From Candidatus Levyibacteriota bacterium (GTDB lineage: Bacteria > Patescibacteriota > Microgenomatia > Levybacterales > UBA12049): a stretch of DNA of 57,084 bases. The number at the start of each line of letters is the position of its first letter. Within the stretch, counting starts at the first letter, position 1. The notes below the pieces were generated by a model. It saw only the letters and a program-made list of their open reading frames with translations, did not search any database and was not told the origin of the DNA. Positions 4,585 through 56,099 of this stretch are shown here, piece by piece. Both the position numbers and the translations under genes were made by a program. The DNA lies in the NCBI GenBank assembly GCA_016186625.1, contig JACPLG010000013.1, positions 1 through 57,084 on the forward strand. Direction: 5' to 3'.

Positions 4585-6720
4585 ATGGCAGATATAGCAA
4601 ACAGACATTTTGATTTGGAAAAGATTCGAAATATTGGCATTATTGCCCATATTGACGCGGGGAAAACCACCACAACCGAACGAATCCTTTTTTACACAGG
4701 ACGAACCCACAAAATTGGTGATATTGACGAGGGAACAACTGTTATGGACTGGATGAAAGAGGAGCGGGAGCGGGGAATCACAATAGTTAGTGCTGCCACC
4801 ACAGCTTTCTGGACTCCGACTGAAGGTTTATCAAAAGAGGTTGAACACCGCATAAACATCATAGACACTCCCGGACATGTTGATTTTACGGCAGAAGTTG
4901 AACGCTCACTTAGGGTTTTGGACGGAGGAATTACAGTTTTGGACGCAGAGGAAGGAGTGCAATCCCAGTCTGAAACTGTCTGGCGCCAGGCTGATAAATA
5001 TAAAGTTCCAAGAATTTGTTTCATCAATAAAATGGACAAGCTTGGAGCAGACTTTTTGGCTACCATTAAATCTATTGAAGACAGACTTGGTGCAAATCCG
5101 GCAATTATGGTTTTACCCATCGGCGCCGAGCAAGCGTATGTCGGCAATATTGATCTTTTAACCCGCAAGGCTTATCGCTGGGGGGGAGACGAACTTGGTG
5201 CGAAATACGATGTAGGGGATGATATTCCAGCGGAGATGAAGGACAAGGTAGAGGAATACCGCCACAAATTAATTGAAAAGATTGCAGAGACTGATGACGG
5301 GCTTTTGGAGAAATACCTCAATGGGCAGGAGCCAACTGTTGATGAACTCAGAGCAGCGCTTCGAAGAGCTGTAATTAGTTATAAATTAGTGCCCATTTAT
5401 GCCGGTTCGTCTTTACGCAATAAAGGAGTCCAGCCTTTGCTTGACGGCGTAGTTGAATACCTACCAAGTCCGGTGGACCTTAGGCAAGTAAAGGGACATA
5501 ATCCTAAGACAAATGCAGAAGAAGTTCGATTACTCGTAGAAGATGCCCCACTTGCAGGACTAGCCTTTAAGATTCAGAACGATCCGCATGTTGGAAAACT
5601 GACATATTTTAGAGTTTATTCCGGAAAACTAACGTCTGGAAGCTATGTTTATAACGCTACAAAGGACCTTAAAGAGAGAGTAGGCCGCCTTCTTCTTATG
5701 CACTCAAATCAGCGGGAAGAAATAAAAGAAGCATATGCCGGAGAAATTGTAGCAATAGTTGGCCTTAAAGATACAGGCACAGGAGATACTTTATCTGATG
5801 AGGGAAAACCAATAGTTCTTGAAAAAATTTCATTCCCGGAGCCTGTAATATCCTTGGCAATTGAGCCAAAAACAAAATCTGATCAGGAGAAGCTCGGTAT
5901 GGCCCTCAAAAGGCTTATGGATGAGGATCCAACCTTTCAAGTAAAAACCAATCATGAAACAGGACAGACTATCATCTCAGGAGTAGGAGAGCTGCAATTG
6001 GAAGTTAAAGTCAACACTATGAAAGCTGATTTTGGAGTTGATGCAAATGTGGGCGCACCTCAAGTAGCATATAAAGAAACTATCAAAGAGACTGCAACAG
6101 GAGAAGGAAAATATATAAGACAGTCCGGAGGACGCGGACAATACGGACATTGTTTCCTTAGAGTAAAGCCCAGGCCCCGCGGAGAAGGTAATGAGTTTAT
6201 CAATTCTATAAAAGGAGGAGCGATTCCGGCTGAATTTATAAAATCAATTGAAAAAGGAGTAAAGGAGAGTCAAGAAAACGGAATTTATCTAGGATATCCT
6301 GTGACAGATATGAGCGTTGAGGTTTATGACGGATCATTTCATGAAGTTGATTCTTCTGAAATCGCCTTTAAAATTGCAGCCTCAAAAGCTCTTCAGGCTG
6401 CTGCCAAGAATGCCAAGCTTACACTTCTTGAGCCAATCATGAAAGTTGAGGTTACAACGCCGTCTGAGTTTTTGGGAGATGTAATTGGAGATCTTTCGTC
6501 AAAAAGAGCACAAATTTCAGGAACCGAAGAGCATGGAAAGGCAACTATAATTCTGGCAATGGTGCCACTCGCAGAGCTCTCTGGTTATGCAACAGTATTG
6601 CGATCGATGACTCAAGGAAGAGCCAGTTATTACATGGAGCCTTCACATTACGAAGAAGTTCCTCAAAACATCCAGCAGCAAATGTTAGCTACCTCCACCT
6701 TCACAGGAAGAGTTGAATAA
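4585..6720 (+). CDS. fusA: elongation factor G
   Basis: AHIDAGKTTTTERILFYTG, DTPGHVDF and NKMDK GTPase motifs are present in a full-length 711 aa protein. Confidence 0.97.
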   Translation: MADIANRHFDLEKIRNIGIIAHIDAGKTTTTERILFYTGRTHKIGDIDEGTTVMDWMKEERERGITIVSAATTAFWTPTEGLSKEVEHRINIIDTPGHVDFTAEVERSLRVLDGGITVLDAEEGVQSQSETVWRQADKYKVPRICFINKMDKLGADFLATIKSIEDRLGANPAIMVLPIGAEQAYVGNIDLLTRKAYRWGGDELGAKYDVGDDIPAEMKDKVEEYRHKLIEKIAETDDGLLEKYLNGQEPTVDELRAALRRAVISYKLVPIYAGSSLRNKGVQPLLDGVVEYLPSPVDLRQVKGHNPKTNAEEVRLLVEDAPLAGLAFKIQNDPHVGKLTYFRVYSGKLTSGSYVYNATKDLKERVGRLLLMHSNQREEIKEAYAGEIVAIVGLKDTGTGDTLSDEGKPIVLEKISFPEPVISLAIEPKTKSDQEKLGMALKRLMDEDPTFQVKTNHETGQTIISGVGELQLEVKVNTMKADFGVDANVGAPQVAYKETIKETATGEGKYIRQSGGRGQYGHCFLRVKPRPRGEGNEFINSIKGGAIPAEFIKSIEKGVKESQENGIYLGYPVTDMSVEVYDGSFHEVDSSEIAFKIAASKALQAAAKNAKLTLLEPIMKVEVTTPSEFLGDVIGDLSSKRAQISGTEEHGKATIILAMVPLAELSGYATVLRSMTQGRASYYMEPSHYEEVPQNIQQQMLATSTFTGRVE

Positions 6721-10752: not shown

Positions 10753-11466
10753 ATGGATAAAAAAAGAATTGCAATAACAGGATCCAGAGGGACGATTGGA
10801 ATAATTCTTAAGGATGGTTTGCCAGAGGATTTTGAAATAATAGAGGCCAGCTTGCCGGAAGTGGATGTTAGGGACTTTGGACAATTAAAGAAGGTCGCTC
10901 GGGGAGCTTTTGCCATAATTCACCTTGCGTGGAACAGTAAAGCGGAAAATCATAAGAATGAGCAAATAGATCCTGACAGCAGCCTCATGTTTCTTAATGT
11001 TTACAAGGCGGCAATTGAGACTGGAGCTAAGCGAGTGATTATGGCAAGCTCTATTCACGCTGACACTTTTATTGGGCGGAAGGGCCCGCCCGCCTCGCAA
11101 GCGAGAGCGTTGCGGGCAGGCCCGGGTTTATTATCTCCTGACAGAACTCCTGTACCTGATAGCCCATACGGAGCAAATAAAGTTTTTGCAGAGTCAATGG
11201 GCAGATATTTTGCTTCAAAGGGACTTGAGGTAGTTTGTGTAAGATTTGGCGGAGTGAATCAGAGAAATTCGCCCGCAGGAGCGGAGCATCCGGCGGAGGA
11301 AAGAGCGGCATGGCTGTCACATAATGATTTAATAAGTTTGATACGCGCTATTTTGCAAGCAGAATCAATCCCAAATTTCGTCTTGATGTACGCAGTTTCA
11401 GATAACCCGGGCAGAATTCATGATACCTCAAACCCCTTTGGCTGGATGCCAAAAGACAGGGCATAA
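10753..11466 (+). CDS. NAD-dependent epimerase/dehydratase (SDR) family protein with GC-rich in-frame insert
   Basis: It carries a Rossmann ITGSRGTIG motif and a catalytic YGANK (YxxxK) motif. Confidence 0.75.
   Translation: MDKKRIAITGSRGTIGIILKDGLPEDFEIIEASLPEVDVRDFGQLKKVARGAFAIIHLAWNSKAENHKNEQIDPDSSLMFLNVYKAAIETGAKRVIMASSIHADTFIGRKGPPASQARALRAGPGLLSPDRTPVPDSPYGANKVFAESMGRYFASKGLEVVCVRFGGVNQRNSPAGAEHPAEERAAWLSHNDLISLIRAILQAESIPNFVLMYAVSDNPGRIHDTSNPFGWMPKDRA
11082..11126. repeat. GC-rich hairpin element inside SDR CDS
   Basis: GGGCCCGCCCGCCTCGCAAGCGAGAGCGTTGCGGGCAGGCCCGGG is self-complementary. It shares GCCCGCC...GCGGGCAGGC ends with 55753-55818. Confidence 0.7.
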
Positions 11467-14434: not shown

Positions 14435-14515
14435 TCCCTTCAGGTAATTTTCAATTCTCAATTTACAATTTTCAATCAATTCCACAATTTTAATTTCTAG
14501 TAAACACTCTTCCTT

Positions 14516-14546
14516 GCCCCTCGTAGCCTCATGCGGAGTGGGGTGC
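14516..14546 (-). repeat. GC-rich element, reverse-oriented copy of 33338-33365
   Basis: The reverse complement GCACCCCACTCCGCATGAGGCTACGAGGGGC aligns with GACCCCACTCCGCCAAGGCTTCGCGGGGC in the rplQ tail. Confidence 0.6.
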
Positions 14547-14557
14547 TATAATTGCCC
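14544..14557 (+). promoter_or_regulatory. TGCTATAATTGCCC box, copy 1 (extended -10-like)
   Basis: An identical 14-mer recurs at 14721 and 15176. Confidence 0.5.
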
Positions 14558-15830: not shown

Positions 15831-15943
15831 TACAAGTACAAAATGGCTAGACAAACACAGGCCACCGGCCTCGGAGGGCTTCTGGCCCGGAGGGAGGTGA
15901 TTGTAGCTACATAGGCTCATTTTTCAAAGTAACTCTTGAAGAG

Positions 15944-20443: not shown

Positions 20444-20546
20444 CGCTCGGGGTCCTGTCGCTCGTTCTCCCTCCCGCCAGTGCTCGTTCACGACTCACTG
20501 AGCTCCGCGCTGTCGGGATCCCTTCCACTCGCACCACCCCTCGCTT
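20444..20546 (+). repeat. ~100-nt GC-rich element, copy A
   Basis: It is about 88% identical by eye to the reverse complement of 27080-27179. GC content is far above the surrounding sequence. Confidence 0.9.
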
Positions 20547-21266: not shown

Positions 21267-21674
21267 ATGAAAATATTTGAAGGAATTATTGTTTCAACAG
21301 GAATGAAAAATACAGCTGTGGTGGAGCTTTACAGAAAAACGCCCCATCCAATATACAAAAAACTTATAAAGAGAAGTAAAAAATTTAAGGCAGACAACAG
21401 AGGCTTTGAGGAAGCAGGGGTTGGAACTCTAGTTCAGATTACCGAGACTAGGCCGATTTCCAAAGACAAACATTTCAAGATTACAAAAATTGTAGGCCAA
21501 AGAGAAATAATAAATGAAAAACCTGAAACTACAGTGTCACTGAAAGAAACTGAAGTACCCGCCGACGCTAAAGCTTTGGAGGGCAAGCAGAAAGAGTCTG
21601 GCAGAAAAGTAGCTAAATCAGCTAAGCCAGTAAAGAAAGTTGTTCGAAAGATAGCAAAGAAGGAGGCAAAATAG
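21267..21674 (+). CDS. rpsQ: 30S ribosomal protein S17 with ~50-aa C-terminal extension
   Basis: GIIVSTGMKNTAVVEL...YKK...KKFKADN...VQITETRPISKDKHF is present. Confidence 0.9.
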   Translation: MKIFEGIIVSTGMKNTAVVELYRKTPHPIYKKLIKRSKKFKADNRGFEEAGVGTLVQITETRPISKDKHFKITKIVGQREIINEKPETTVSLKETEVPADAKALEGKQKESGRKVAKSAKPVKKVVRKIAKKEAK

Positions 21675-27079: not shown

Positions 27080-27179
27080 AGCGAGGGGTGGTGTGAGTGG
27101 AAGGGTTCCCGACAGCGTGCAGGCGAGTGAATCGTCGACGAGCACTGGCGGGAGGGAAAGGAGCGACAGGACCCCGAGC
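27080..27179 (-). repeat. ~100-nt GC-rich element, copy B (inverted relative to copy A)
   Basis: The reverse complement aligns end to end with 20445-20546. Confidence 0.9.
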
Positions 27180-35808: not shown

Positions 35809-36168
35809 CTAGTCTTTAGTCTTTTGACTAGATAAAGATTTTATCAAACCATTGAGTTCTTTTCCAACAATGTCTGCTTGTTTTAATTCCCTAGATACAT
35901 CTATATGAAATAAAGTTTCTGCAATTTTTAATCCAGCAACTGTTTCATATAAAGATTTGCGTGCTATTCGCAGAAAACTTTTGAACTCTATATCACCAAG
36001 TCCTCCTGTCCCTTCAGCAATGTTTAAAATTATTGAAGTTACTGATCTTTTTAATTGCGAAGCAAGCGCAAATTGTTCTTCTTTGGGCAATGAATTCGCA
36101 ATTTGATAAACCATTTTCACCAAAATCATTGCATTTTGATATACTCTTAATTTCTCAAATCTATACAT
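35809..36168 (-). CDS. four-helix-bundle protein (23S rRNA intervening-sequence protein family)
   Basis: [20 protein letters not shown]...[19 protein letters not shown]...[11 protein letters not shown] is typical of the family. Confidence 0.85.
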
Positions 36169-36263
36169 GCTTAGAAGCTGGAGACCAGAGACTAAAGACT
36201 AAAAGCAATTTTATCATAAAATCCTTCTTGTATTTTATAAATCGGTGGTCTACAATTGGGCAA

Positions 36264-37361
36264 ATGGCAAGGCAGGCAAAAAATCCACTATCAAACGGTC
36301 CTTCTGATTCCTCAGCAAAATTAGATGCAGTGAGACTCGCAATGGAGCAAATTGAAAAGCAGTATGGCAGAGGCTCAATAATGCGAATGGGAGATGCTTC
36401 CCAAAAGCTTGAGATCTCAGTTATTTCAACCGGTTGTTTGCCTTTGGATCTTGCACTTGGCGTTGGGGGTCTACCCAGGGGTCGCATCGTTGAAATTTAC
36501 GGGCCTGAAGCTTCTGGAAAAACAACGATCGCTCTCTCTGTAATTTCAGAAGCTCAGAAAAAAGGTGGAGTGGCAGCATTTATTGATGCAGAACATGCGC
36601 TAGATTCTCTCTGGGCTGAAAAAATAGGAGTAAAACTTGAAGATCTATTAATTTCCCAGCCTGACACTGGAGAACAGGCACTTGAAATTGCAGAAAGTTT
36701 GATTCGCTCAGGAGGGGTTGATGTTTTAGTCATAGATTCCGTTGCGGCACTTGTTCCACGCGCAGAAATTGAAGGAGAAATGGGAGACTCTATGATGGGA
36801 CTCCACGCGCGTCTTATGTCCCAAGCTCTTAGAAAATTAACAGGAGCAATTTCTAAAAGCAAAACTGTTGTTATTTTTACTAATCAACTGAGACAAAAAA
36901 TCGGAATTATGTTTGGAAATCCGGAGACAACCACCGGAGGACTCGCTCTTAAATTCTATGCTTCCGTTAGGATTGATTCACGAAAAATTGAAACTTTAAA
37001 AGATGGAGACAGGGTAATTGGGTCACGTCACAGAGCAAAAATTGTAAAAAATAAAGTAGCCAGTCCTTTTAGAATTGCAGAATTTGACGTAATGCATGAT
37101 GGAATCTCAAAAGAGGGAGCAATAATTGACGTTGGAGTCGAAATGGGAATAATTCAAAAATCAGGAGCATTCTTCAGGCACGGTGAAACAATGCTTGGGC
37201 AAGGCAAAGAAGCAACAAAAATGTTTTTGCGAGAAAACTCAAGCCTAGCTAATAAATTAACTGATGAGATTATGAAAGCAAATAAATCTCAAGGCACTCC
37301 AGTTGCGGTTGGAGTTGAAGAAAAAGAACAAGACGAGGCAGAGACTCCTTTAAATGGATAG
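36264..37361 (+). CDS. recA: recombinase RecA
   Basis: [14 protein letters not shown], the [12 protein letters not shown] Walker A motif and [21 protein letters not shown] are present. ATG 36264 was chosen because the listed ORF upstream is read-through. Confidence 0.95.
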
Positions 37362-39297: not shown

Positions 39298-39558
39298 AAG
39301 TTAGCCTCGGATAAAGCTCCAATTGAACACTTTTCTTATCTTGACCCGGCCATATCTTACCGTTCGGCTTTTGGGAACTGTTCGTTCACGCCTCCCTCCG
39401 GATGCGGGCAGGCACGGAGCGATTATAGGCGGGTTGTGTTGCTATTTTGAACACATTAATGGGACTTGACAAGCTTTTCAAATGCATTGTATTGTTAATC
39501 TAATCGGGTTAATATTATCCGTTTTGATTGATTCGATAGCTAAAACATGAAGGAGGTG

Positions 39559-47028: not shown

Positions 47029-48093
47029 CTAATTGAAGTAAAGACTGGGGTTGGCATCGAGTTTTTGCCAAGACACAGTTTGGTAATTAAAAAAAGCCGT
47101 GGCTGCGATCATAGCGGCGTTGTCTGTACAAAGATTTTTGGGAGGAACAAAAATCTTAGCTCCTAGCTTCTGGCTCCTAGCTTCTAGCTCAAACTGCTCA
47201 CGCAGTTTATTATTTGCAGCGACTCCGCCACCTAGAAGCAATGATTTTGCTCCAAACTGTTTAGCCGCAGTCAATGTCTTCTTAACAAGAACGTCAATAA
47301 TTGCTTTTTGGACAGAAGCAGAAAGATCGCAAATAGTTGAATAGCTTAATGGCTGCATAGTTTGGGTTTCGCGAAAAACTGCGGTTTTGAGTCCAGAGAA
47401 ACTGAAGTCGAAATCATGAGAATCAATTAAAGGGCTTGGGAACGTAAAGCGACTGGCGTCGCCACGCTGCGAAGCCTGTTCGATATGAGGCCCACCTGGG
47501 TAGGGCAAACCAAGCAGTCTCCCTATTTTATCTAGCGATTCTCCTGCGGCGTCATCACGGGTTCCACCAAGCCACTCTATACTGCCGTGATTTTTAATTA
47601 AAATTAAATCAGTATGACCACCGGAAACTATTAATGCTATCAAAGGGAATGCCGGAGGACGGAAGGCGGACGACGGATGACGGATTGCAGATTGAACAGA
47701 TTCAACAGATGCTGTGATTTCTGTTTTTCCGCTGTCTGTTCTCAGTCCTCTGTTGTCTGTCATCTGGATGAAGTTGGCGTATATGTGGCCAAGCAAATGA
47801 TTGGTTGGAATAAGAGGTTTGTTCCATACATAAGAAAGCGCCTTAGCGGTTTCGACTCCAATTAATAGAGAACCAATAAGTCCAGGACCATATGTGACTG
47901 CAATTGCATCAATGTCTTTTATTCCTGTTTTAGATTTTCCTAATGCATCTTTAATTACTGGAATTATAAATTTAATTTGTTCTCTTGCAGCGTTTTCAGG
48001 AATAATACCTCCGGTTTTTTAGCCTTTCGTTTCTCCTTTAATAACGGCAGCGCTCGTCTCATCGCAGCTGGTTTCAATGCCTAGGATTAGCAT
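47029..48093 (-). pseudogene. tsaD: tRNA N6-adenosine threonylcarbamoyltransferase TsaD with in-frame TAA at codon 25, a ~15-aa gap and a ~30-aa insert
   Basis: [37 protein letters not shown]...GPGLIGSLLIGV...LIALIVSGGHT...DDAAGESLDK...FSFSGLKT...GGGVAANNKLR...CTDNAAMIA is present. The stop is at 48019-48021. Confidence 0.85.
47650..47763. repeat. word-palindrome insert inside tsaD
   Basis: GACGACGGATGACGGATTGCAGATTGAACAG...CTGTCTGTTCTCAGTCCTCTGTTGTCTGTCATC shares the words CTGTTCTCAGT and TCTGTTGTC with spacer 3067-3196. Confidence 0.75.
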
Positions 48094-53632: not shown

Positions 53633-54853
53633 ATGGATAAATTCTACAAGCAAATCGAGGAGGCTATAAAGACGGGAAAATCTGCTCGAATCATCGAGTC
53701 GGGAGAAGGTGCATACCTCACAATTGGAGGAAAAAAGAAATTAAATTTTTGTTCTAGCCACTATTTAGGTCTGTCCGTTGACCCTCGACTCGCAAAAGCA
53801 GCTTCAGACGCAGCACGCAAATACGGAATTGGGACTGGTTATAGAACTCTTGCCGGAAACCATGTTTTACATTTAGAACTCGAGGATCATTTGGCTCGCT
53901 TTAAACACGCAGAAGCTGCAGTTATTTTCACCGGCGGATATATGGCCAACTGCGCAGCAATTCAAACAATTATTGGCAAGGAAGATATTGTTATTTCAGA
54001 TGAGCTGAATCATGCATCAATTATTGATGCAATAAGACTTTCTCAAGTTAAGAACAAGTTTATTTATAAACACTTGGACATGGTGGATCTGGAAGAGAAA
54101 TTAAAACAGGTTGTCATCCTGAGCAACAGTGAAGGATCCCAAGATTCTTCGGCTGCGCCTCAAAATGACAATCGCAAGCCTTTAATTTTGATAGTTACTG
54201 ATGGAGTCTTCTCAATGGACGGTGACTTGGCGCCACTTCCAGATATTGTTCGTTTGGCTCGGCAGTATGGGGCACTTACTATGGTAGATGATGCACATGG
54301 AGAAGGAGTTTTAGGAAAAGGAGGAAGGGGGATTGTCGATCATTATGGAATTCACGGACAAATTGATATTGAAGTTGGGACTTTATCAAAAGCATTTTCC
54401 ACTATGGGAGGATTTATTACCGGAAGAAAAGAGCTTATTACCTATTACAAACAAAAAGCCCGCCAATATCTGTTTAGCAATGCTTTAACAATTCCAGATA
54501 CAGCAGCTCTTATTGAAGGAGTAAAGATTTTAGAAGAGTCAGATGAGCTAGTCAAAAAGCTCTGGGATAATACAAAATACATCAAGGAAAAGTTTGCCGA
54601 TCTTGGGTTTGATATTGGACATTCTAAGAGCCCAATAACTCCTGTGATGATTCCAGATGAGGATAAAGCCCGCGAATTTTCGGCCAAACTGTTCGAACTG
54701 GATGTTTTCGCAACGCCAATTGTTTTTCCCATGGTGCCTAAAGGAAAAGCAAGAATTCGCGTAATTCCTTCCGCATCACATTCAAAAAAAGATTTAGAAT
54801 TTGGAATAGGCGCATTCAAAAAAGTTGCAAAAGAGCTTTCCCTCCTGAGATAA
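53633..54853 (+). CDS. kbl: 2-amino-3-ketobutyrate CoA ligase (glycine C-acetyltransferase) with 19-aa in-frame repeat insert
   Basis: NFCSSHYLGL, ISDELNHASIIDA, DGVFSMDGD, VDDAHG and the GTLSKAF PLP lysine motif are present. Confidence 0.9.
   Translation: MDKFYKQIEEAIKTGKSARIIESGEGAYLTIGGKKKLNFCSSHYLGLSVDPRLAKAASDAARKYGIGTGYRTLAGNHVLHLELEDHLARFKHAEAAVIFTGGYMANCAAIQTIIGKEDIVISDELNHASIIDAIRLSQVKNKFIYKHLDMVDLEEKLKQVVILSNSEGSQDSSAAPQNDNRKPLILIVTDGVFSMDGDLAPLPDIVRLARQYGALTMVDDAHGEGVLGKGGRGIVDHYGIHGQIDIEVGTLSKAFSTMGGFITGRKELITYYKQKARQYLFSNALTIPDTAALIEGVKILEESDELVKKLWDNTKYIKEKFADLGFDIGHSKSPITPVMIPDEDKAREFSAKLFELDVFATPIVFPMVPKGKARIRVIPSASHSKKDLEFGIGAFKKVAKELSLLR
54113..54169. repeat. GTCATCCTGAG...AAAATGAC hairpin element inside kbl (57 nt = 19 codons)
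   Basis: GTCATCCTGAGCAACAGTGAAGGATCCCAAGATTCTTCGGCTGCGCCTCAAAATGAC encodes VILSNSEGSQDSSAAPQND and is codon-aligned. Confidence 0.85.
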
Positions 54854-54860
54854 TTCCCTA

Positions 54861-55907
54861 GTGAAATACGATCAACTTATTGCCTCTGGGACCTTTGACC
54901 TTTTTCATAAGGGGCACAAGTCTTTTTTGGAAAAATCATTTGAGGTCACAGATGAAGTTATTGTTTGTATAACCAGTAATAGTTATGTTAAATCTTTTAA
55001 AGATTTAAAAGACATCGAAGATTTTGAGATTAGGAAAAAAACAGTTCTTCAGTTTTTAACTTCAATTGGGGTGGCGGATAGAGCGAAAATTATTTCAATT
55101 GATGATGTCTTTGGACCACTTTTGACGCGACAGTTTGATCCAAATGCAATTGCGGTGACTCCTCAAACAGAAAAAACAGCTATAGAAATTAATGAAAAAA
55201 GAAAAGAGCTTGATTTACCACAGCTTGAAATTATTGTCATTGAAATGGAAAAAGCTGATGATGGTGGACTAATCTCCTCAACCAGAATTAGAAAAGGAGA
55301 AATTAATAGAGGCGGGCGGCTATATGTTCGAAATAATTGGAGAGATAAAACATTAAAGCTTCCACAAAATTTGCGCCCGGTCTTGCAAAAACCTCTAGGA
55401 AAATTATTGAGTTGGGTTCCATCAGGTGTTGACGGTTCGAAGGCTATAACGATCGGAGACATCTCAACTCAAAAATTTAATGAGAAAAATGTGGGGCAAT
55501 TTTTGTCAGTTGTAGATTTCAAAGTTCACAGGGAGAAAATGTTTGAAAAACTCTCAGATTTGGGCTTTGTTGAAGATATAGAAACAATTAAAGTAGGAAA
55601 TCCAGCTGGGACAATTACATGGGATTTGTTCGAAGCCGTTCAAAAAGCATTTAGTACGGAAAATAGAAAAATAATTCTAGTGAAAGGGGAAGAGGATTTG
55701 GCAGTTTTGCCAGCTTTACTTATTTCGCCTCTTGGGTTTACCGTTTACTATGGCCAGCCCGCCTACGCCGAGGCTTCCTCCGACGCTAAAGCTTTGGCGG
55801 ACAGGTCTGCGGGCAGGCCAAATGAGGGATTGGTTGAAGTGCCGGTTACCGAGCAAAACAAAGAAAAAGCCTACGATTTGGTTAGTAAATTCACTTCACA
55901 GTCTTAG
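54861..55907 (+). CDS. fusion of archaeal-type phosphopantetheine adenylyltransferase-like cytidylyltransferase and DUF359 (GTP-dependent dephospho-CoA kinase family) domain
   Basis: The N-terminus has ASGTFDLFHKGHKSFL (HxGH). The C-terminus has GDISTQ...VVDFKVHR...VKGEEDLAVLPALLISPLGFTVYYGQP...GLVEV, with a GTG start. Confidence 0.7.
   Translation: MKYDQLIASGTFDLFHKGHKSFLEKSFEVTDEVIVCITSNSYVKSFKDLKDIEDFEIRKKTVLQFLTSIGVADRAKIISIDDVFGPLLTRQFDPNAIAVTPQTEKTAIEINEKRKELDLPQLEIIVIEMEKADDGGLISSTRIRKGEINRGGRLYVRNNWRDKTLKLPQNLRPVLQKPLGKLLSWVPSGVDGSKAITIGDISTQKFNEKNVGQFLSVVDFKVHREKMFEKLSDLGFVEDIETIKVGNPAGTITWDLFEAVQKAFSTENRKIILVKGEEDLAVLPALLISPLGFTVYYGQPAYAEASSDAKALADRSAGRPNEGLVEVPVTEQNKEKAYDLVSKFTSQS
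55753..55818. repeat. GC-rich hairpin element inside the DUF359 domain (66 nt)
   Basis: GCCAGCCCGCCTACGCCGAGGCTTCCTCCGACGCTAAAGCTTTGGCGGACAGGTCTGCGGGCAGGC has arms that pair, with G-U pairs on the sense strand. Confidence 0.8.
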
Positions 55908-56099
55908 TAAAAAAAGTTCAATACTACCAAGTATTATACTTTTTATTAAATTTGTTTGCCTATTGATTATTGTAGTTTTTTTTGCGATAATGCTTTCTAT
56001 TAAATGAGAAACTTTAATTTAGTTAGCAAGAAGGACAAGAAGAGCCTCTCAGAGAGGGGATTTGTCTTGGTATAAATCTTTAAACTAGAAAATGACAAA

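Follow-up and report, generated by a model that had tools for sequence, protein, structure and literature searches.

How does a conserved enzyme come to be split, within an invariant motif, by a short GC-rich hairpin that leaves its reading frame open? This question is raised by a gene encoding 348 aa (54861 to 55907, + strand) in a 57-kb stretch of AT-rich, Levybacteria-type DNA (38% GC), hereafter called the window, for which a first-pass annotation had described a hairpin inserted in frame in the DUF359 domain of the product. It is likely, in our view, that the insert is a composite, two-unit copy of a group of GC-rich imperfect-palindrome repeats dispersed in Levybacteria and related Candidate Phyla Radiation (CPR) genomes, and that it is translated and tolerated.

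Pfam, sequence matches in the PDB, an AlphaFold model and homologues identified the gene as a fusion of phosphopantetheine adenylyltransferase and dephospho-CoA kinase (PPAT-DPCK). One half of its product was assigned to the archaeal-type PPAT (PF01467) and the other half to DUF359 (PF04019), the GTP-dependent dephospho-CoA kinase family (PMC6650551), with sequence matches to PDB entries 3DO8 and 8JVC. The model of the protein had a pLDDT of 86.9 and matched the fold of 8JVC (TM 0.79). A total of 868 homologues was found at E ≤ 1e-10, with a usual length of about 326 aa, and some of the named ones came from Candidatus Levybacteria and other Patescibacteria; a protein-alignment scan of a genome collection gave 29 loci, none of them above 55% identity. 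In Levybacteria-like bacteria, as represented by the window protein and these 868 homologues, an archaeal-type PPAT and a GTP-dependent DPCK thus form one polypeptide, so that the last two steps of CoA synthesis appear to be archaeal-type in these organisms.

To delimit the insert, we used an alignment of 27 homologues and empty sites in DNA. Most of the aligned proteins read YYGQ-P[ND]EGLVEV without interruption; Y297, G298 and Q299 were invariant, as was the G of the following P-x-E-G, whose P was nearly invariant. In the window protein and in homologue P0002, 20 extra residues, PAYAEASSDAKALADRSAG[RK], separate Q299 from this Pro. They were absent from P0003 and P0004, which are 72-76% identical to the window protein, and likewise from most homologues. 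The corresponding empty site was observed in locus L013, where TATGGCCAG is directly followed by CCAAAT, and was similar in L031. On this basis the insert comprises 60 nt, or 20 codons (CCCGCC...GGGCAGG; 55758 to 55817, + strand), encoding the peptide PAYAEASSDAKALADRSAGR; both junctions are flanked by GCC, which leaves an ambiguity of up to 3 nt in the register. The interval 55753-55818 reads as first described, and the in-frame position within DUF359 stands, with 60 nt and 20 aa in place of the 66 nt and 22 aa claimed. The insert was present at the same junction in L030, an independent NCBI assembly, and its GC content was about 65-67% versus 38% for the window.

The catalytic aspartates D48, D67 and D125 of the archaeal enzyme (PMC6650551) align with D200, D219 and D279 of the host protein. 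The insert lies about 20 residues past D279, the third of them, and so falls inside an invariant motif but not at any residue shown to be catalytic. The Pfam DUF359 match ended exactly at the insert (residue 301), which indicates that such elements can break profile matches. In the AlphaFold model, residues 302-322 had a pLDDT below 50 and are placed as a low-confidence loop that leaves one confident strand (294-298) and returns to another (324-328). Loop length at this site varied among the aligned homologues. Translation of the insert would yield the predicted tryptic peptides GFTVYYGQPAYAEASSDAK, ALADR and SAGRPNEGLVEVPVTEQNK.

Reading the sequence directly, the 60-mer consists of two nested 30-nt units of the pattern P-x-x-A-K-A-x-x-G-K. 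The left 18 nt of the outer unit (55758 to 55775, + strand; CCC GCC TAC GCC GAG GCT, PAYAEA), recognised from L157 and from long-form copies, are followed, after the sixth codon, by the inner 30-nt unit TCCTCCGACGCTAAAGCTTTGGCGGACAGG (55776 to 55805, + strand), which was matched by nhmmer and reads, codon by codon, TCC TCC GAC GCT AAA GCT TTG GCG GAC AGG (SSDAKALADR). The remaining 12 nt of the outer unit (55806 to 55817, + strand; TCT GCG GGC AGG, SAGR) were delimited by comparison with other copies at the DUF359 site and with long-form copies. The inner unit contains the 18-nt core CCGACGC-TAAA-GCTTTGG (55780 to 55797, + strand), a hairpin with one G-U pair and one C/U mismatch.

Both RNA and DNA folds gave a full stem-loop from 55752 to 55821 (+ strand), in which the host GGCC at 55752-55755 pairs with the GGCC at 55816-55819, the latter being formed by the end of the element and the host Pro codon. 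The outer stem, GCCAGCCCGC/GCGGGCAGGC, is complementary at 9 of 10 positions, as had been stated, so that terminal inverted repeats, a criterion for miniature inverted-repeat transposable elements, are present. The RNA fold reached -37.2 kcal/mol (z = -2.9) for the + strand versus -35.3 kcal/mol (z = -1.8) for the - strand, and the DNA folds -19.8 and -18.4 kcal/mol. An inner stem proposed earlier, CGCCGAGGCTT/AAGCTTTGGCG, does pair, through two G-U pairs, and is part of the minimum-free-energy fold of the + strand RNA. It is not the hairpin conserved in the family: it joins the left half of the outer unit to the right half of the inner unit, an alternative pairing that arises as a by-product because the units are nested.

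Family 1, a dispersed set of short palindromes

Three copies of this repeat family, hereafter family 1, were found in the window. In addition to the copy at the DUF359 site, a single 30-nt unit encoding PADAKALEGK was located, in the same frame, in the C-terminal tail of S17 (21558 to 21587, + strand; nhmmer E = 1e-4), and a diverged unit encoding PHSAKASRGK, also in the same frame, in the C-terminal tail of L17 (33339 to 33368, + strand), where the match was weak (E = 0.04). The general claim that a repeated hairpin element had been inserted in frame in a conserved enzyme domain, with related elements elsewhere in the window, thus holds. A supposed intergenic copy near 39395 could not be called a copy, the only match being 11 nt of the right terminus (E = 6.4).

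At least 120 metagenome stretches contained the exact 18-nt core, CCGACGCTAAAGCTTTGG, whereas by our estimate chance would give about 15; all copy counts given below (102, 101, 61, 45 and 21) were drawn from the matches listed among these stretches. The core was almost always contained in a 26-nt hairpin, CCCgCCGACGC-TAAA-GCTTTGGcGGG, followed by CA[A/G]G. Among the matches listed, the inner unit occurred alone or nested in more than 100 contigs and the 60-nt composite in 21 copies, most of them with unrelated flanks, which suggests that the composite propagates as a unit. A 90-nt version with a third unit was present at the DUF359 site of L032, and the lengths of the element and its relatives were 30, 36, 39, 60 and 90 nt. 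Copies were carried by named metagenome-assembled genomes of Levybacteria and Curtissbacteria, and by assemblies from JGI, ENA, Logan and NCBI; many of the matches came from groundwater sites such as Rifle or Hainich.

Some of the core matches were discarded. Those in L050, L069 and L103, which had no hairpin flanks, were chance matches in unrelated genes. The same applied to four matches in viral contigs, one and the same phage gene without hairpin flanks; being due to chance, they give no evidence for phage carriage. A blastn comparison of the element with PLSDB plasmids and INPHARED phages gave no match. The only Rfam hit at the gathering threshold in the whole window was a tRNA, and at permissive E-values the region 55650-55920 gave only RT-3 (E = 1.3), adjoining the insert and consistent with chance.

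To describe where the copies lie, we used 102 non-redundant copies on contigs of at most 50% GC, and considered a copy to be gene-embedded when long open reading frames (ORFs) were present on both sides (45 of the 102). The embedded copies were read in the sense DAKAL frame in 29 cases, in the antisense KALAS frame in 11 and in another open sense frame in two; the other three contained a stop codon, and at least one of these (L057) was the shadow of a real ORF. Two of the six frames are closed, so that about one third of the copies would be expected at random to be closed and the rest to be spread evenly over four frames. Instead, open frames held 42 of the 45 copies, and two frames alone held 40. 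The bias towards in-frame, stop-free copies is the one that translation predicts. It points to translation followed by selection on the peptide, and argues against removal or bypass at the RNA level, as had been suggested for the insert. Owing to the dyad symmetry of the unit, the two favoured frames encode similar, Ala/Lys-rich peptides.

About 70% of the in-gene copies were in sense orientation and about one quarter in antisense orientation, the latter in essential genes too. The hosts included RNase R, Rho, UvrA, CTP synthase, LeuRS, MetRS, a 5'-3' exonuclease, Dus, TsaD and POR, as well as L3, DnaE, DnaX, PriA, EF-P and the CCA-adding enzyme, the last with three sites and both orientations. 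Strictly intergenic copies showed no orientation preference relative to the neighbouring genes, and a T-run was found in 0 of 20; a role of these copies as intrinsic terminators was therefore rejected.

The hairpin itself was assessed on 101 copies, 61 of them distinct, at the four base pairs outside the core on which the sample had been selected. Pair 3-28 was CG in 28 distinct copies, UA in 20, AU in 2, UG in 2 and unpaired in 9; pair 6-25 was GC in 34, UA in 7, AU in 2, GU in 1 and unpaired in 17. The closing pairs thus covary, with a score of 0.133 versus 0.058 in shuffles (reached by 0 of 500) and at most 0.043 for slid partners, numbers that are inflated by the relatedness of subfamilies. 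When RNAalifold was applied to 18 long-form copies, only the invariant inner hairpin was recovered; the outer stem was left uninformed because the left arms are heterogeneous. Single units folded at -9.3 and -10.7 kcal/mol as sense RNA and at -6.6 and -7.9 kcal/mol as antisense RNA, and were barely stable as DNA. The idea that folding of the sense RNA is favoured is therefore weakly supported (-9.3 versus -6.6 kcal/mol, and about 70% of in-gene copies in sense), with the antisense quarter and the unbiased intergenic copies against it: the strand asymmetry of folding is real but modest.

Levybacteria-type DNA that had been retrieved independently of the element (about 640 kb in total) contained approximately three family-1 copies outside the DUF359 site. 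With all families counted (see below), the window holds roughly six to eight such elements in 57 kb; most of its other GC-rich islands were ordinary conserved coding motifs (for example in EF-Tu and RecA), and were rejected as elements.

Two further arrangements were observed. Some family-1 copies abut tRNA genes (L051 1611-1648, L147 117-146, L083 2830-2867 and L118 1290-1319), and in L051 and L147 the start of the unit coincides with, or lies inside, the 3' end of a tRNA-like sequence (GGTTCGAATCCGGTCGAG followed by CCCGCC...). In L142 (3001-3030 and 5703-5732) and L085 (7291-7320), family-1 units are nested in the right arm of a GTCAT...GAATGAC palindrome, with the layout AGATTCTTCGCTxCGCT[unit]CAGAATGAC, from which it follows that different GC-rich families insert into one another.

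Recurrent sites and the origin of the inserts

The junction that follows the Gln codon of YGQ was occupied, depending on the lineage, by at least four different hairpin elements. Family 1 occurred there in 30-, 60- and 90-nt forms, in the window and in L030, L032, L157, L001 and L002/L016. The 30-nt units encode PPYAKASEGK in L157, where the outer unit stands alone (CCCCCCTACGCCAAGGCTTCGGAGGGCAAG), PSFAKASKGK in L001 and PSFAKASKGE in L002/L016. The other elements were a 36-nt family-2 copy in L155, a 36-nt family-3 copy (PARIAMQSIAGR) in L156, with similar peptides in P0025, P0030, P0051 and P0070, and another 30-mer, encoding PRLGRVQAGQ, in L033.

Family 2 is also represented in the window: an NAD-dependent epimerase gene carries, in frame, a 36-nt copy, GPPASQARALRA (11083 to 11124, + strand; fold z values of -3.7 and -4.8), that was unique among 20 homologues and has the direct repeat GGCCCG on each side (11083-11088 and 11119-11124). 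It is identical at 34 of 35 positions, as reverse complement, to the DUF359-site insert of L155, which is flanked by the 6-nt direct repeat GGCCAG; family 2 thus occurs in opposite orientations in a different gene of each of two genomes. This epimerase copy is the SDR insert (11082) for which the same termini as those of the 60-nt insert had been noted. The termini are indeed common to both (left CCCGCC, right TGCGGGCAGGCC), but the interiors differ and the family is not the same. Termini of the form CCCGCC(CGC)...GCGGGCA[A/G]G were found across all element families.

A second hot spot was observed in the neighbouring gene (53633 to 54853; Pfam Aminotran_1_2), whose product we read as a 2-amino-3-ketobutyrate CoA ligase (KBL)-like enzyme. 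A 39-nt element, CCCGCCCGCAAACGCCTGAGCGTAGCGATGGCGGGCAGG, follows the KTP codons in L033 (4754-4792), L006 (9255-9293) and L155 (9261-9299); this near-identical hairpin may also be given as RPQTPERSDGGQA. In a neighbour-joining tree, the three carriers fell in three separate clades, each with sisters that lack the element. The window copy of the gene contains a 57-nt in-frame palindrome (54113-54169; GTCATCCTGAGC...CCTCAAAATGAC, VILSNSEGSQDSSAAPQND; RNA fold z = -5.8), and L157 a third, different sequence around 4960-5040.

Direct repeats at the junctions amounted to 3 nt (GCC) for the 60-nt insert, 6 nt for family 2 and 1 nt for the 39-nt KBL-gene element, and neither a common target motif nor a target-site duplication of fixed length was found across the compared junctions. 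GGCC adjoins family 2 and the 60-nt insert, but not the 39-nt element or the S17 copy.

The inserts were much better conserved than their hosts. Between the window and L030, the insert was identical at 58 of 60 positions, versus 77.5% in the rest of the gene (binomial P = 4e-5), and between the window and L032 the inner unit was identical at 29 of 30, versus 69.6% for the host genes. For the 39-nt KBL-gene element, 38-39 of 39 positions were identical versus 69-72% in the hosts (P = 1e-6 to 4e-5), with 39/39 versus 70.5% in one comparison (P = 1e-6). The high identity ended exactly at the insert borders and included synonymous positions. Older-looking copies at the DUF359 site were identical at 26/30 (host 68%) and 21/30 (host 59%). 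The near-identical copies reflect either recent independent arrivals at one site, nucleotide-level constraint or homogenisation from other copies.

Taken together, these data are best accounted for by the copying of a small, non-autonomous DNA repeat into the kinase domain, at a permissive turn. The element would have landed, or been copied, between the Gln and Pro codons of the YGQ/P.EG turn. With a length of 2 x 30 nt, divisible by three, and no stop codon in the frame used, the insert would be transcribed and translated with the gene, most likely as an extra surface loop rather than being removed from the RNA. This flexible loop of 20 residues, rich in Ala, Lys, Ser and Asp, would be added at a beta-hairpin turn, and the enzyme evidently tolerates it. 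We infer that the insert is translated, that it is neutral or at least tolerated, and that the element is mobile. A common machinery might recognise the ends of the elements or their hairpin, and might favour GC-rich, GGCC-like targets or sites already occupied by an element, as suggested by the shared termini CCCGCC...GCGGGCA[A/G]GCC, the junction repeats, the nesting and the reuse of sites.

Several points weigh against this explanation. The near-identity of inserts whose hosts differ by 25-30% could mean a nucleotide-level function instead of recent insertion. No clear target-site duplication was seen for family 1, and the scan of 20 window ORFs revealed neither a transposase nor a RAYT-like gene. 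A selfish repeat would be expected in more copies per genome than appear to be present, the invariance of the core is built into a sample selected on the exact 18 nt, and translation is read from the frame bias, the essential hosts and the modelled loop.

A bolder version, which we regard as possible but doubtful, is that ultra-small hairpin cassettes of 30-39 nt undergo targeted, homing-like integration or, alternatively, that they are a conserved cis-acting signal in coding sequence. Under homing, different families would repeatedly enter the YGQ/P and KTP/K junctions of essential genes in separate lineages, and a conserved source would keep the inserts nearly identical while their hosts diverge by 25-30%. 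If true, site-directed mobile DNA of a new class would exist in tiny-genome bacteria that seemingly lack ordinary transposases.

We consider it rather improbable that the hairpins are not selfish repeats but cis-acting motifs at the nucleotide level that, for example, bind a protein as RNA or DNA, pause translation, or govern the stability or processing of the mRNA, and that were acquired by an ancient insertion and repeatedly lost. This would fit the conservation of the inserts above host level, synonymous positions included, the polyphyly of the carriers of the 39-nt KBL-gene element, the covarying closing stem, the better folding of the sense RNA (-9.3 versus -6.6 kcal/mol) with about 70% of in-gene copies in sense, and the few copies per genome. 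It is at odds with the quarter of in-gene copies that are antisense, with intergenic copies that have neither orientation preference nor T-run, and with one closing pair that is mismatched in 17 of 61 distinct copies. Moreover, the older-looking same-site copies (26/30 versus 68%, 21/30 versus 59%) decay roughly like their hosts, unrelated interiors occupy the same site in different lineages, and the host genes are functionally unrelated.

Excision of the insert from the mRNA, or its skipping by the ribosome, either of which would give a protein without the 20 residues, appears very unlikely. A stable sense-RNA hairpin, Pro codons at both borders (CCC...CCA) that could be read as take-off and landing codons, and the position inside an invariant motif are compatible with such an intervening sequence. 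Yet the insert is in frame and stop-free, lengths in the family are 30, 60 and 90 nt, and the 42 open copies among the 45 in genes are concentrated in two Ala/Lys-rich frames; an untranslated element would escape such filtering, so the frame bias counts against this explanation. No stop codon follows the putative take-off codon, antisense copies occur in essential genes, and there was no match to a ribozyme or intron family in Rfam.

That slippage or local duplication simply expanded the loop in this lineage, outside any repeat family, would agree with the variable loop length among homologues but is even less credible, being already contradicted by the repeat-family matches: dozens of unrelated genes, and intergenic spacers as well, contain the same 30- or 60-nt sequence, which has 65-67% GC where the genome has 38%. 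An assembly or chimera artefact can practically be dismissed, given that the insert occupies the same site in the independent NCBI assembly L030, that family copies occur in JGI, ENA, Logan and NCBI assemblies, and that the element is shorter than typical assembly k-mers.

Other features of the window and of the host family

The window also encodes core housekeeping genes, including rpoC, S12, S7, EF-G, EF-Tu, RecA, RecX, RNase Y, RmuC and TsaD. In the product of the RecA gene (36033 to 37361), the Pfam RecA match begins only at residue 99, after an extension of about 98 residues at the N terminus. The frame of TsaD (48093-47029, - strand) is continuous from the ATG at 48093, save for an in-frame TAA at 48021-48019 (codon 25), which could reflect a pseudogene, a sequencing error or readthrough; in addition, about 35 extra residues, MTDNRGLRTDSGKTEITASVESVQSAIRHPSSAFR (around 47640-47760), precede the GGHT motif of the protein.

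In the adenylyltransferase half of the fusion protein, a different in-frame GC-rich insert was observed in L032 (1187-1213, protein P0005; FKN-DPSASSGQ-EQVE, DNA GATCCTTCGGCAAGCTCAGGACAAGAG), and inserts of the same type were present in the alignment in P0013, P0020 and P0023. They resemble the PSTSSGQ / FDKLRTG motif, which we take to be common in metagenome-derived proteins.

Several non-coding repeats and hairpins were also noted in the window. A 101-nt GC-rich repeat (68%) is present at 20444-20545 (+ strand) and, inverted, at 27080-27179, in two spacers of the ribosomal-protein cluster; the two copies are 88% identical, with a fold z of about -2.6 and no Rfam match, and the repeat also occurs in L130 (8743-8821) and L085 (10277-10312). 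The region 39380-39433 shares only TGCGGGCAGGC with the 60-nt element, and a likeness to the 101-nt repeat at 20444 was noted in its left part, GTTCGTTCACG. Downstream of EF-Tu (14506-14556), a conserved GC-rich hairpin, followed by GCTATAAT, was 91% identical over 47 nt in L087 (2607-2653) and also found in L099 (232-252); it may serve the next operon as a conserved promoter or leader. Another intergenic GC-rich hairpin, GACAAACACAGGCCACCGGCCTCGGAGGGCTTCTGGCCCGGAGGGAGG (15850-15901; fold z = -2.1), had a partial match in L066. Finally, the ribosomal-protein-cluster spacers between 18042 and 33903 contain AT-rich periodic repeats (families D1-D7 and I2-I14), such as AAAATTCAAAAATGCAAAATTCAAAATTACAATTAAAGGAGG upstream of genes and inverted pairs of the TTTCGAATTTCGAATTTCGAA type between genes.

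Comparison with known systems

Short GC-rich hairpin inserts in AT-rich coding sequence are known from T4 gene 60, the mitochondrial 'byp' elements of Magnusiomyces and the GC clusters of yeast mitochondria, which the present elements resemble in these respects. In bypass elements, openness and a length that is a multiple of three are unconstrained, whereas the present family is open, in frame and frame-filtered. Membership of the bypass or intervening-sequence class, for which untranslatable content is required, was rejected on this ground.

Like REP and REPIN sequences, the elements described here are GC-rich imperfect palindromes of 20-40 nt, form families defined by conserved ends or hairpins, and often lie near the 3' ends of genes. 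REP/REPIN sequences are palindromes mobilised by RAYT and tagged by GTAG or CGTC (PMC3733652); they are extragenic, of high copy number, and carry the GTAG or CGTC at their head. In contrast, the present elements start with CCCGCC and end with GGGCA[A/G]G, CGTC being found only internally, on the complementary strand. Of 102 copies, 45 lie in long ORFs, only about three were present outside the hot spot in about 640 kb, and no RAYT was found among the 20 window ORFs scanned. Assignment to REP/REPIN thus fails on head, extragenic location and copy number.

PARCELs are 25-residue units in tandem arrays, found in surface or membrane ORFs of unknown function (PMC2996958). The likeness is restricted to the dyad-symmetric coding logic, the two orientations of our unit giving DAKALA and SAKALAS; unlike PARCELs, the present elements are single insertions in housekeeping enzymes.

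The closest kind of element is the protein-coding palindromic repeat, exemplified by the Rickettsia palindromic elements (RPEs), the Wolbachia repeats and the MJRE of M. jannaschii (PMC2229807). RPEs are dispersed palindromic repeats of 105-146 bp that lie between genes and in frame in functional genes; 19 ORF insertions have been described in Rickettsia, and an RPE-bearing guanylate kinase (gmk) is translated and enzymatically active (PMC2229807). The present elements share with them the dispersed repeated copies, the stem-loop palindrome and the in-frame position in conserved genes. They differ from RPEs, which are confined to one genus, in the 30-nt unit, the 60- and 90-nt nesting, the occurrence in many metagenomic lineages and the near-identical sequence, as well as in the reuse of the same codon junction by several families. 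Their length, 30-60 nt, lies outside the range of about 105-146 bp given for the RPE families (RPE-1 to RPE-8; PMC2229807). The MJRE are short palindromic repeats in coding regions of Methanocaldococcus jannaschii that are apparently translated in frame (Suyama et al. 2005; PMC2229807). The likeness here lies in short palindromes inside protein-coding regions with apparent in-frame translation. The MJRE are reportedly archaeal, genome-specific and unrelated in sequence to the elements described here, and we know of no report of different MJRE families recurring at one site.

In the literature covered, which did not include all journals, no description of such elements in CPR bacteria was found, searches with raw DNA and peptide strings included. 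CPR genomes are very small and densely coding, and the elements would explain many odd loops and tails rich in Ala, Lys, Ser and Gly in their predicted proteins. The reuse of sites by different families, together with conservation of the inserts above that of their hosts, makes the mechanism of spread a concrete question. The elements are best filed as a very small, modular variant of the protein-coding palindromic repeats, from which they differ in unit size, nesting, spread over lineages and reuse of sites.

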